This document shows positions 22,815-26,312 of a DNA stretch of 64,000 bases, one piece after another. The translations under genes and the position numbers were made by a program. The DNA comes from Dictyostelium discoideum (Eukaryota), in assembly GCA_000004695.1 (NCBI GenBank), contig CM000154.2, forward strand, positions 3,552,001 through 3,616,000. The letters run 5' to 3'. The notes beneath the pieces were generated by a model that saw nothing but the letters and a program-made list of their open reading frames with translations, made no database searches and had not been told where the DNA came from. How positions within the stretch are numbered: position 1 is the first letter of the stretch; each line of letters begins with the position of its first letter.

Positions 22815-25800
22815 ATGAGTGGTAGGGATGAATCATCGCGTTCACGTGATTTTTCAGATGAATATTTTACAAATGAATCACTACAACAACAATTAAATGA
22901 AAAATCACCAATTTTATCATCATCATCATCATCACCAACAACAACAACAACAAACCCATCATCAACTAAATATTATTCAAATATTTTAAATAAAGTTTCA
23001 AATTTAGTTCAGAATACAGCATTAGATACAATTGGATTTAATGATTTAATTCATAGTCCATTTTCAAGTAATAGTAATAATAATAATAATAATAATAGTA
23101 GATTAATTACATATTGTGATTTTACAGCATCAGGTAGATCATTAGAAAGTATTGAAGAATATTTATTAAATGAAGTTATACCATTATATGCAAATACTCA
23201 TACATTATCAGATGCAACTGGTTTACAAACTACTCTATTTCGTAGAGAAGCTAGAGAAATTGTAAAAAGAGGTTGTCGTGGTAGTAATGTTGATGATTCT
23301 TTATTATTCATTGGTTCAGGTTCAACTGCAGCAATTAATGCATTAATTCATATTTTAGATATTAAATATTTATCAAGTATAAATAAAAAACCATTAATTT
23401 TATTAGGTCCATATGAACATCATTCAAATATTTTACCATGGAGAGAAGCTGGTGCTGAAGTTTTAACTTGTCCTGAAAATAATAATAGTAAAGAGGGAAT
23501 AAGAGGAGGAGTTGATTTAAATTTTTTAGAAGAAATTTTAAAAAAATATTCAAAATTAGATTCAAAAAGATTAATTATTGGATCATTTTCAGCAGCATCA
23601 AATGTTTCTGGTATAATTGAAGATACAATTAAAGTTACAGAGATATTAAAAAGGTATGGTGCATTATCAATTTGGGATTACGCATGTGCTGCACCATATA
23701 TACCAATTGATATGAATCCATTCAATGATAATAGATATAAAAAAGATGTTATCTTTTTTTCACCTCATAAATTTTTAGGTGGTGTTAGTACACCAGGTGT
23801 AATGTTAATTAAAAAGAAGCTATTAAACAATAATATACCACATCGTCCAGGTGGTGGTTCAGTATTATATGTAACTTCAAATCAAACAACTTATTTAAGT
23901 AATTTCGAAGAGAAAGAAGAAGCTGGTACTCCCGATATTGTTGGTAGTATTCGTTGTGGTTTAGTATTTCAATTAAGAGAACATATTGGTATTGATAATA
24001 TTTATCAATCTGAAATTGAACATAGTAATCATTTAAGATTAAAATTAAATAAAATTAAAAATTTAGTTTTATTAGGTGATAATTCAATAAATCAATTCGA
24101 ACAACAACAACCACAACAACAATTACCAATTATTAGTTTTTTAATTAGATATGAAAATGATCCAACATTATTTTTACATCATAATTTTGTAGCATCATTA
24201 TTGAATGATTTATTTGGTATTCAAAGTAGAGCAAGTTGTGCATGTGCAGGACCATATTTACAATGTTTATTAGGATTGAATCAAGAGGATAATCAAAATT
24301 TATTAGAATCAATATTTGAAAAACAAGAGATTATTAGACCTGGTATGGTTAGAATTAATGTTAGTTTCACTCATACATTACAAGAGATTGATTTCATAAT
24401 TAAAGCCATTGAATTCATTTGTTTAAATGGTTGGAAATTTATGCCACTCTATACTTTTGTTGTTGCATCAGGTGAATGGAAACATAGAAGTAAATTAAAT
24501 AAATTACCAGATAGACGTTGGTTAAGTAGTATTACTTATAATAATAATAATGGTAGTAATGGTAATGGTAAAATGAAATATCAATCAAAGAGAAAACAAA
24601 TCGATATTTCAGATTGTAATAATGATCCTTCTTTAATTATGGATAAATTACATTCAATTAAAAATAGTTATCTTGAAGAAGCTAATCAAATCTTAACAAA
24701 TCTATTATCAAATCCTCCAAAAATTTTACCTGATCAATCTTCAATGTTAACAAATGATTCAAATAAATTAAGATGGTTTCCATTACCAACTGATATTTCT
24801 TTAATTTTACAACAACAACAAGAACAACAATATGAACAATTATATTCAGATTTTAATAATTCAAAAACAATTTTATCACCAACACTTGGTAGAGAAATTA
24901 TAATTAAACCTCATAAACCATTATTACCTGGTACTTTGATTTTAAAACAAAATACTTCATTATCAACATCAATTGATTTGAATAATCAAATTTATCCAAT
25001 AATAAAAGTAATTAATTCAATTTCAAATGTAGATAATAATAATAATAATAATATAAATAGTAATGATTTAAATAATTTGGATAATTCAAATAATTCAAAT
25101 ATTATTAAAAATAATAATGAAGATAATAATAATAATAATAATAATAATAATAATAATAATAATAATAATAATAATAATAATAATAATAATAATAATAATA
25201 ATAATAATAATAATAATAATAATAATAATAATAATAATAATAATAATAATAATAATAATAATAATAATAATAATAATAATAATAATAATAATAATAATCA
25301 AGTTTGTTTATTAAAGCCAAAAGATATTAGTGGATTAGTTGAAAGTAAAACTTGTATAAATTGTTTCCATGATCATACAGTTGATAATAAAAATAAAAAT
25401 AATAATATTAATAATAATAATAATAATAATAATGAAAGTTGTAAAGAATGTAGATCATGTGAATGTGTTTCATTTGTACCAAAAATGGAAGGTAGTAAAA
25501 AAGAAAGAGAAAATTTACAGAAAAAGATAAATAGTAATATTGTACAAACAATATTAAATTATGAAATGATTAAAGATGGTGATAAAGTTTTGGTTGGTGT
25601 TAGTGGTGGTAAAGATAGTTTAACATTAATTCATACATTATTGGATTTAAGAAGAAGATCAAAAGCAAAATATACAGTTGCAGCATGTACAGTCGATCCA
25701 CAATCACCAGACTATGATCCAAGTCAATTAAAGAATTATTTCGCTTCACTTGGTGTACCTTATTTTTATGTTAGTCAAGCAATTATGGAATCTGCAAAAT

Positions 25801-26312
25801 CATGTATGTTAAGAGAAGGTATTGAAAATAAAGCAAGTATTTGTGCCTATTGTAGTAGAATGAGAAGAGGTATAATGTATGATATTTGTAGACGTGAAGG
25901 TTATAATGTTTTAGCATTAGGTCAACATTTAGACGATTTATCAGAGTCTTTCTTAATGTCTGCTTTCTATAATGGTATGTTAAGTACAATGAAAGTAAAT
26001 TATCTAAATGAACAAGGTGATGTTAGAATCATTCGTCCATTGGCAAATTTAAGAGAGAGCCAAACTAGATTATTCGCAAAAGTAATGGGTCTACCTGTAA
26101 TCTCTGAAAATTGTCCTGCTTGTTTTGAAGCTCCAAAAATTAGACAATCAATGAAAAAATTATTAGCCGCTCAAGAAAATGTTAATCCAATGATTCATCA
26201 CACTTTATATAAAACTATGCAACCTCTATTAACAGTTGATAAAACAAATAGAACTAGTGGTAGAAGTTTAGATATTAAAAATATTAATTCTAATAACAAT
26301 AATAAAGATTAA
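22815..26312 (+). CDS. Fusion protein: N-terminal class-V PLP-dependent cysteine-desulfurase-like domain + long poly-Asn linker + C-terminal TtcA-family PP-loop ATPase (tRNA 2-thiocytidine synthetase-like); single exon, 1165 aa
   Basis: The N-domain motifs (YANTHTLSDATG, HHSNILPWREAG, and FSPHKFLGG, which carries the putative PLP-binding Lys) place it in the aminotransferase class V / NifS-like fold. The C-domain aligns along its length with E. coli TtcA (SGGKDS PP-loop, CAYCSRMRRGIMY, ALGQHLDDLSESFLMSAFYNG, IIRPLANLRE, CPACFEAP). Confidence 0.8.
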   Translation: MSGRDESSRSRDFSDEYFTNESLQQQLNEKSPILSSSSSSPTTTTTNPSSTKYYSNILNKVSNLVQNTALDTIGFNDLIHSPFSSNSNNNNNNNSRLITYCDFTASGRSLESIEEYLLNEVIPLYANTHTLSDATGLQTTLFRREAREIVKRGCRGSNVDDSLLFIGSGSTAAINALIHILDIKYLSSINKKPLILLGPYEHHSNILPWREAGAEVLTCPENNNSKEGIRGGVDLNFLEEILKKYSKLDSKRLIIGSFSAASNVSGIIEDTIKVTEILKRYGALSIWDYACAAPYIPIDMNPFNDNRYKKDVIFFSPHKFLGGVSTPGVMLIKKKLLNNNIPHRPGGGSVLYVTSNQTTYLSNFEEKEEAGTPDIVGSIRCGLVFQLREHIGIDNIYQSEIEHSNHLRLKLNKIKNLVLLGDNSINQFEQQQPQQQLPIISFLIRYENDPTLFLHHNFVASLLNDLFGIQSRASCACAGPYLQCLLGLNQEDNQNLLESIFEKQEIIRPGMVRINVSFTHTLQEIDFIIKAIEFICLNGWKFMPLYTFVVASGEWKHRSKLNKLPDRRWLSSITYNNNNGSNGNGKMKYQSKRKQIDISDCNNDPSLIMDKLHSIKNSYLEEANQILTNLLSNPPKILPDQSSMLTNDSNKLRWFPLPTDISLILQQQQEQQYEQLYSDFNNSKTILSPTLGREIIIKPHKPLLPGTLILKQNTSLSTSIDLNNQIYPIIKVINSISNVDNNNNNNINSNDLNNLDNSNNSNIIKNNNEDNNNNNNNNNNNNNNNNNNNNNNNNNNNNNNNNNNNNNNNNNNNNNNNNNNNNNNNNNNQVCLLKPKDISGLVESKTCINCFHDHTVDNKNKNNNINNNNNNNNESCKECRSCECVSFVPKMEGSKKERENLQKKINSNIVQTILNYEMIKDGDKVLVGVSGGKDSLTLIHTLLDLRRRSKAKYTVAACTVDPQSPDYDPSQLKNYFASLGVPYFYVSQAIMESAKSCMLREGIENKASICAYCSRMRRGIMYDICRREGYNVLALGQHLDDLSESFLMSAFYNGMLSTMKVNYLNEQGDVRIIRPLANLRESQTRLFAKVMGLPVISENCPACFEAPKIRQSMKKLLAAQENVNPMIHHTLYKTMQPLLTVDKTNRTSGRSLDIKNINSNNNNKD
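25125..25298 (+). repeat. (AAT)58 in-frame tract encoding about 58 consecutive Asn, in the linker between the desulfurase-like and TtcA-like domains
   Basis: Seen directly. It generates the artefactual poly-I/poly-Y ORFs 25095..25320. Confidence 0.9.

Follow-up and report, generated by a model that had tools for sequence, protein, structure and literature searches.

The question raised by this locus is whether a single gene of Dictyostelium discoideum could supply both the enzyme that mobilizes sulfur from cysteine and the tRNA-thiolating enzyme that consumes it. The gene lies on the plus strand of the window analyzed here, by which we mean the whole stretch of 64,000 nucleotides (contig CM000154.2, positions 3,552,001 to 3,616,000), and an initial annotation had read it as a single open reading frame (ORF) in which a desulfurase-like enzyme, dependent on pyridoxal phosphate (PLP), is fused to an enzyme resembling TtcA, the tRNA 2-thiocytidine (s2C) synthetase. 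That architecture is borne out. The segment 22815..26312 (+) is one uninterrupted ORF of 1165 codons plus a stop, with a single exon and a predicted product of ~132 kDa, and both domains are matched within this one frame. Its ATG is the first available, three codons past an in-frame stop, and the N-terminus can be aligned with that of the Polysphondylium violaceum orthologue. In a window of ~20% GC, the fusion frame has no stop codon across 22815-26312, whereas the two remaining forward frames contain 94 and 255. Domain searches with Pfam and NCBIfam, proposed as a check by the annotation, assigned both halves to the families it had named, and every motif quoted in it (FSPHKF, SGGKDS, CAYC, GQHLDD, and CPAC) was found. 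Our findings suggest, with a probability that we put at about 60%, that the product is one bifunctional polypeptide in which a SufS-like desulfurase feeds a TtcA-like s2C synthase.

The N-terminal half (N-module) carries the class-V, NifS-like motifs that had been claimed for it. Pfam Aminotran_5 (PF00266) matched residues 100-524 (E 7.6e-33) and the best NCBIfam model for this half was the SufS subfamily (residues 98-485, E 1.9e-30). SufS-type enzymes were the top matches both by sequence and by structure, and 42 of the 43 sequence matches in the PDB were SufS/CsdA-type cysteine desulfurases, the weakest match being a NifS-like aminotransferase. When compared by BLASTP with E. coli SufS (K-12 record), the module aligned end to end (E 9e-24) at ~22% identity. 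The SxHK-type lysine is K319, within FSPHKF at residues 315-320; it aligned with K226 of SufS and is kept in 116 of the 117 fusion proteins described below; a gene model with a gap at this site accounts for the remaining one. The active-site cysteine, which the annotation had left to be checked, is present: C477 falls on Cys364, the catalytic residue of the short type-II loop, in an ungapped stretch of the BLASTP alignment (RASCACAGP vs RTGHHCAMP), and a profile made from 18 fusion proteins placed R-G-G-C-A-C-A-G-P-Y on R-x-G-H-H-C-A of SufS structures. The same BLASTP comparison paired D288 with D200, R513 with R379, and R472 with R359, and there was no alignment gap to SufS either at the Cys loop or in the type-II beta-hairpin region. 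The His-His that precedes the catalytic Cys of SufS is not conserved here; C-A stands in its place, which results in an invariant Cys-x-Cys (CxC) pair, C475 and C477, found together with R472 in all 117 fusions. As judged from its sequence, the N-module is a SufS-like (type II) PLP domain with every catalytic residue present, and cysteine desulfurase activity is predicted for it.

The C-terminal half (C-module) resembles TtcA motif by motif, as had also been claimed. Pfam ATP_bind_3 (PF01171) matched residues 924-1093 (E 9.3e-15), the best NCBIfam model was TtcA (residues 893-1142, E 1.3e-60), and E. coli TtcA aligned with 32% identity over 247 residues (E 5e-45), with SGGKDS, CAYC, GQHLDD, and CPAC each falling on its E. 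coli counterpart (Table 1). E. coli TtcA coordinates an oxygen-sensitive [4Fe-4S] cluster through three essential residues, Cys122, Cys125, and Cys222 (the last Cys in CNLC), while Cys219 is dispensable, and it has been proposed that adenylated cytidine is attacked by a sulfide borne on the free iron of the cluster (PMC4081106). These three essential cysteines, the proposed cluster ligands, correspond to C1010, C1013, and C1103 of the window protein, which may bind a cluster in the same manner. As to the numbering, Cys200/219/222 of Bouvier et al. (2014) are residues 191/210/213 of RefSeq NP_415860.1 (an offset of 9), and Cys122 and Cys125 agree. In an AlphaFold (AF2) model of residues 830-1165 the predicted local distance difference test (pLDDT) of the core was mostly >90; a Foldseek search with this model returned the [4Fe-4S] thiolases TtuA and NcsA first (E ~1e-13 to 1e-14), followed by TilS, and the PDB yielded no structure of TtcA.

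The architecture is not peculiar to D. discoideum. Homologues were taken as the best 120 database matches to the full window protein, most of them 900-1400 residues long. In the precomputed Pfam list, PF00266 was present in all of these and PF01171 in all but a 1995-residue protein of Phytophthora cactorum (P0005), in which a rescan gave only a sub-threshold PP-loop match. The highest identities to the window protein were 67% (a JGI protein), 61% (P. violaceum), and 59% (D. purpureum), and overall identity is only ~35-45% outside the close relatives. The fusion is conserved in other dictyostelids, namely P. violaceum and D. purpureum, as the annotation had suggested checking, and far beyond them: in many oomycetes, in Plasmodiophora, in the cryptophyte Guillardia, in the heteroloboseans Acrasis and Percolomonas, and, among animals, in a sponge, corals, echinoderms, hemichordates, amphioxus, molluscs, and ticks. 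Several of the homologues are complete ORFs in transcriptome assemblies, and the alignments to mollusc, echinoderm, and hemichordate members span 90-98% of the query (best local alignments). In the alignment of 117 fusions, 116-117 sequences have H202, H203, D288, K319, R472, C475, C477, and R513 of the N-module, as well as SGGKDS, C1010, C1013, C1100, C1103, and D1041 of the C-module, the exceptions being single alignment gaps. In P. violaceum, exon 1 (L009 6001-8631) holds the desulfurase, the linker, and the PP-loop, and the sole intron lies inside the TtcA-like domain; since one exon spans both domains, the merging of two neighboring genes by a gene predictor is excluded in this species. 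From these sequence comparisons, the family occurs in at least five eukaryotic supergroups, and the window ORF is best regarded as an orthologue, in dictyostelids, of a real and old desulfurase-TtcA fusion found across eukaryotes. The rarity of TtcA-like proteins in eukaryotes, on which the annotation had remarked, does not hold for a fusion so widespread in protists and invertebrates.

Some further observations were made on the homologue set. A match to an HMG-box in the linker of one homologue (P0046) was borderline (25.7 vs a cut-off of 25.4). In two others (P0042 and P0115), visual inspection had pointed to zinc-finger-like inserts within the desulfurase domain; Pfam did not confirm these, and they were dropped. 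In a neighbor-joining tree of the TtcA-like domains, the bacterial stand-alone proteins grouped in a single pure cluster, separate from the fusions of eukaryotes; rooted on E. coli TtcA, the tree gave an uninformative grade of fusions with an unreliable rooting, and neither the number of origins nor the direction of transfer was concluded from it.

The closest counterpart in the literature is the 'IscS-TtcA' protein of Aplysia californica (LOC101861551, 1177 residues vs 1165 here), which is kept in 28 mollusc species and is the candidate enzyme for s2C at position 32 of tRNA-Lys-UUU, the first s2C32 reported in a eukaryote (bioRxiv 10.64898/2026.09.27.754811). According to this preprint of September 2026, before which s2C was considered missing from eukaryotes, LOC101861551 is the sole TtcA homologue of Aplysia and its RNA-seq coverage is consistent with one mRNA; the candidate was put forward without enzymology or genetics, and post-translational cleavage was raised. 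The fusion is therefore not unprecedented, although literature searches for it in Dictyostelium, oomycetes, and other protists gave nothing besides the preprint. The Aplysia protein is built like the window protein, with a class-V desulfurase, a long spacer, and a TtcA-like domain, and shares with it the PLP lysine, the CxC pair, SGGKDS, and CxxC...CPAC; mollusc members from Patella (P0102) and Mercenaria (P0110) share 39-40% identity with the window protein in the multiple alignment and align over 90-92% of it. Because the preprint compared its candidate with the type-I enzyme IscS, it could not place the catalytic Cys, and its conserved Cys448 and Cys450 are evidently the CxC pair described here. 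Moreover, it dealt with molluscs only and regarded everything between the two domains as unconserved linker, whereas the present comparison extends over at least five supergroups and defines a conserved extension within that region. Beyond the Aplysia type, the dictyostelid protein has a tract of 58 Asn and a Cys/His-rich motif. New in the present analysis are thus the assignment to type II, the invariance of the CxC loop, the recognition that the desulfurase has a conserved extension, the placement of both halves in subclades of their own, and the depth of the distribution among eukaryotes.

We hypothesize that the two modules constitute a self-contained sulfur relay. L-cysteine would be bound on the PLP of K319 and Cys477 would take its sulfur as a persulfide, as in SufS, with the release of alanine. 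The sulfur would then pass to the vacant iron of a [4Fe-4S] cluster held by C1010, C1013, and C1103, within the fusion protein or its dimer; since SufS is a homodimer, this transfer may run in trans within the dimer. The reduction or resolution of the persulfide could fall to C475 of the CxC loop and an external thiol reductant, and a variant in which a C-terminal thioredoxin domain (60 bits) follows the desulfurase and TtcA-like domains (P0009) fits with a need for disulfide or persulfide reduction. The PP-loop, together with ATP, would adenylate O2 of a tRNA cytidine, most likely C32 of cytosolic tRNAs, and the cluster-bound sulfide would displace AMP to yield 2-thiocytidine. The conserved extension of the desulfurase might replace a SufE/SufU-type partner or dock the TtcA-like domain. 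The desulfurase NFS1 is largely mitochondrial and cytosolic thiolation of U34 requires a long relay; a private desulfurase would release a cytosolic TtcA from dependence on NFS1. The leader of the window protein (residues 1-95) appears acidic and unlike a presequence. A search of the 64-kb window for tRNA genes that could serve as C32 substrates found none.

Several points weigh against this interpretation. The N-module reached only 106 bits against a cut-off of 475 for the NCBIfam SufS subfamily and likewise missed the SufS and CsdA equivalog models (65 bits vs 661 and 52.7 vs 493.6), so that by sequence it is a clade separate from the SufS/CsdA enzymes curated by NCBI, and literature searches gave no assayed member of this clade. 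Type II desulfurases usually require an acceptor of the SufE/SufU/CsdE type; Pfam and NCBIfam scans detected no SufE/SufU/CsdE-like domain within the window protein, and the multiple alignment revealed no invariant Cys in the conserved extension. No desulfurase gene was found near the closest stand-alone bacterial TtcA-like genes, in neighborhoods from Thermithiobacillus and Thiobacillaceae, and for this reason the fusion has no Rosetta-stone or operon support. A survey of tRNA nucleosides that included D. discoideum was unable to quantify s2C and advised taking its presence in eukaryotic samples as a sign of bacterial contamination (PMC6356711). The C-module, for its part, scored 205.2 bits (whole protein) or 209.5 bits (domain) on the TtcA equivalog NF007972, for which the cut-off is 272 and E. 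coli TtcA itself reaches 513.8 bits; it is only 30-32% identical to E. coli TtcA, and its closest relatives, proteobacterial proteins of ~250 residues with 55-60% identity, are also below the cut-off (201-224 bits). Those named come from Thiobacillaceae, Hydrogenophilaceae, Gallionellaceae, Halothiobacillaceae, and Thermithiobacillus; most are labeled 'ATP-binding protein' by NCBI, with TtcA used by JGI, UniRef, and some NCBI records. The eukaryotic C-module and these bacterial proteins appear to form a distinct TtcA-like subclade. Since its score and those of its relatives lie below the cut-off and its identity to TtcA is low, the target specificity of the C-module is not secured. The functions named by 's2C synthetase' and 'cysteine desulfurase' are only inferred, because both domains miss the curated cut-offs of NCBI.

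The alternative that survives best accepts the architecture but supposes that the C-module modifies another nucleoside, position, or RNA than s2C32. The sub-cut-off TtcA scores (205-210 vs 272 for the module, and likewise for its nearest bacterial relatives) and the low identity just mentioned speak for it, and the same fold and motifs occur in the enzymes that make 2-thiouridine at position 54 (s2U54, TtuA) or 34 (s2U34, NcsA) and lysidine (TilS). However, TtcA is by far the best family for the C-module, with an E-value of ~1e-60 against 1e-15 to 1e-17 for TtuA and TilS, and Aplysia has s2C32 with the fusion as its sole TtcA homologue. We consider another target rather unlikely.

A second alternative is that sulfide from the desulfurase goes into the assembly or repair of the [4Fe-4S] cluster in the protein's own TtcA-like domain, or that the module serves general cytosolic sulfur supply, with the transferred sulfur coming from elsewhere. 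The cluster of E. coli TtcA is oxygen-sensitive and decays to [2Fe-2S] (PMC4081106), and the desulfurase module also occurs alone or with unrelated partners, as a portable sulfur source that is not TtcA-specific. In a search of 1.84 billion representative proteins, 1079 relatives of the desulfurase family were found with E-values up to 1e-30, and the best 141 representatives were analyzed; 101 of these had no PP-loop, with the CxC pair in 99 of the 101 and the tryptophans and phenylalanine of the extension in most of them. Members without a partner were seen in Hanusia and Willaertia, a protein of the chytrid Podochytrium had two class-V domain matches, and other partners included cyclic nucleotide monophosphate (cNMP)-binding domains in Planctomycetota, hemerythrin plus GST_C, and DUF4395 plus glutaredoxin. 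The N-module with its extension is thus an independent evolutionary unit that has TtcA as one of several partners. On the other hand, cluster maintenance is compatible with the relay proposed above, in that enzymes of the TtcA and TtuA types are proposed to carry the sulfur on the fourth iron of the cluster, so that cluster supply and sulfur donation may be one event. As a separate explanation, we judge it unlikely. A link to DUF4395 recurs in the desulfurase family: one protein combines it with glutaredoxin and the desulfurase (P0298), and in Planctomycetota a DUF4395 gene lies directly upstream of the gene for cNMP-binding plus desulfurase domains (L010 5340-8892).

A third possibility is that the N-module performs another class-V PLP chemistry, as a selenocysteine lyase, a cysteine sulfinate desulfinase, or a C-S lyase. 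C-S lyases such as C-DES do not require the Cys that here occupies the Cys364 position of SufS in all 117 fusions, and C475 and C477 are both kept in 139 of the 141 representatives of the wider family. R472, R513, H202, D288, and K319 are likewise invariant, and the rank of SufS-type enzymes as top matches by sequence and structure points in the same direction, which makes a different chemistry improbable.

The region between the catalytic domains, which are ~370 residues apart, had been described as a junction of about 58 consecutive Asn. The tract is there, with exactly 58 Asn, but it does not join the halves by itself: a conserved C-terminal extension of the desulfurase comes first and is followed by a variable, low-complexity linker. 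The extension is ~175 residues long, with the motifs GWK...GEWKH...DRRWL (539-570) and LRWFxLP (652-658), and has no Pfam family and no PDB counterpart; only a part of the supposed linker is consequently variable. The proposal that the halves act as separate proteins, through separate transcripts, linker processing, or proteolytic cleavage, can draw on the intergenic-like composition of the unconserved residues 701-905 (GC 13%, vs 10% in the upstream intergenic DNA) and on the cleavage raised for Aplysia, but it is highly improbable given that these ~200 codons are open in the fusion frame (0 stops vs 12 and 102 in the other frames), that over 100 species have this architecture, among them some with complete transcriptome ORFs, and that P. 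violaceum has a single exon across both domains and Aplysia RNA-seq is consistent with one mRNA; cleavage of the translated product may nonetheless occur. The idea that the AT-rich linker conceals an intron or a gene boundary was also considered and rejected, as the frame is open and the orthologues keep one ORF. The Cys/His-rich motif of the linker (residues 847-884) is possibly metal-binding. It was found in the multiple alignment only in dictyostelids and Plasmodiophora brassicae, and it lies directly upstream of the TtcA-like domain, where TtuA has its N-terminal zinc finger; HMMER paired its CKEC with the N-terminal CKFC of TtuA, in a region where the AF2 confidence is low. Across 25125-25298, the listed poly-Ile and poly-Tyr ORFs of the remaining frames and of the minus strand are by-products of the repeat.

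A bifunctional desulfurase-TtcA protein can be compared with several known systems. E. coli and Salmonella TtcA are like the C-module in having the PP-loop, two CxxC motifs of which the last Cys is the third ligand, and GxHxDD, and the chemistry proposed above is carried over from them by analogy; they receive sulfur from IscS in trans (Jager, 2004; Bouvier, 2014, PMC4081106), in contrast to the covalent SufS-type donor predicted here, and the window protein differs from them further in being eukaryotic, probably cytosolic, and of a distinct subclade. In comparison with the SufS/SufE, SufS/SufU, and CsdA/CsdE systems, the N-module has a G(G/S)CxCAGPY loop instead of GHHCA and an additional extension of ~175 residues and, unlike them, is found fused to TtcA-like, cNMP-binding, glutaredoxin, thioredoxin, and hemerythrin modules. 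TtuA/TtuB, NcsA, and Ncs6(Ctu1)/Ctu2 are the closest solved structures to the C-module, with which they have the three-Cys cluster site and the PP-loop chemistry in common; however, their sulfur comes from ubiquitin-like thiocarboxylate carriers or free sulfide, their targets are U54 or U34, and they bear terminal zinc fingers, and by sequence the TtuA type scores far below TtcA (E 1e-15 vs 1e-60). MOCOS/ABA3, a NifS-like desulfurase with a sulfur-accepting domain, and ThiI, a PP-loop enzyme with a rhodanese, are precedents for a covalent link between sulfur mobilizer and consumer. Compared by description only, they differ from the window protein in their partner domains, their products, and their desulfurase subfamilies.

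The features of the locus are listed in Table 1. Downstream, a convergent gene at 26349-28565 (-) encodes a 738-residue protein with DUF7035, DUF7034, DUF7949, and ComC supersandwich domains, its stop codon and that of the fusion ORF being 36 nt apart; it may reach further upstream, because the DUF7035 profile is matched from its start by the very first residues listed for this protein. Upstream lie a gene for thymidylate kinase at 21621-22420 (-), in two ORF pieces with apparently a short intron between them, and a gene for a NUDIX-domain protein at 20538-21560 (+), apparently interrupted by a short intron, which we take from its sequence to resemble an isopentenyl-diphosphate isomerase. Around the stand-alone TtcA-like genes of both bacterial lineages, a metallophosphatase (PF00149) gene is found shortly downstream (L001/L002 8777-10599; L004-L006 8784-9605). 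An Hsp33 gene comes directly after the TtcA-like gene in Thermithiobacillus, and in Thiobacillaceae the metallophosphatase gene follows DsbD and redoxin genes.

Table 1. Features of the desulfurase-TtcA fusion gene, in window coordinates
Feature	Residues	Position	Strand	Basis or conservation
Complete single-exon ORF		22815..26312	+	No internal stop; upstream in-frame stop
N-terminal leader, Ser/Thr/Asn-rich	1-95	22815..23099	+	Variable in multiple alignment, poorly conserved
Class-V PLP fold, SufS-like (type II) desulfurase core	100-524	23112..24386	+	Pfam/NCBIfam
YEHHSN	H202/H203	23412..23429	+	Aligned with SufS MEHHAN H123/H124; 117/117 fusions
FSPHKF, PLP-binding K319 (codon 23769-23771)	315-320	23757..23774	+	Aligned with SufS K226
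Predicted catalytic loop SRASCACAGPY	R472, C475, C477 (24243-24245)	24225..24257	+	SufS alignment; profile-PDB alignment
Conserved C-terminal extension of desulfurase	~526-705	24390..24929	+	Multiple alignment
Variable low-complexity linker	~706-892	24930..25490	+	Not alignable between lineages
Perfect (AAT)58 repeat, 58 Asn	771-828	25125..25298	+	Codon count, no synonymous AAC
Cys/His-rich motif CINCFHDH...CKECRSCEC	847-884	25353..25466	+	Pattern C-x2-C-F-H-x-H...C-x2-C-x-C
TtcA-like PP-loop ATP pyrophosphatase, putative [4Fe-4S] tRNA thiolase domain	893-1142	25491..26240	+	NCBIfam TtcA
PP-loop SGGKDS, predicted ATP binding/adenylation	930-935	25602..25619	+	On E. coli SGGKDS; 117/117
CAYC	C1010/C1013	25842..25853	+	On E. 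coli CSLC Cys122/Cys125; 117/117
GQHLDD	1036-1041	25920..25937	+	On E. coli GHHRDD; D1041 invariant
CPAC	C1100/C1103	26112..26123	+	On E. coli CNLC; 116/117 conserved

A wider picture can be drawn from these results, which we offer only tentatively since we would put its odds at somewhat less than even: s2C would be a modification of cytosolic eukaryotic tRNAs that is widespread and has been overlooked, and its synthase would be self-sufficient, drawing sulfur from an ancient and hitherto unrecognized clade of CxC-type SufS-like desulfurases that bears its own extension and is independent of NFS1 and of SufE/SufU-type acceptors, a portable module that would also feed cNMP-binding, glutaredoxin/DUF4395, and hemerythrin partners in protists and Planctomycetota. 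Dictyostelium is a haploid, genetically tractable amoeba. If the fusion is the eukaryotic s2C synthase, a tractable organism carries the orthologue and the link between enzyme and modification becomes testable in it, the work in molluscs being only correlative. A cysteine desulfurase would then take part in tRNA thiolation outside the NFS1 pathway, which bears on how sulfur is mobilized in the eukaryotic cytosol. As the N-module defines an uncharacterized desulfurase clade that has been reused in several fusions, its biochemistry would matter beyond tRNA.

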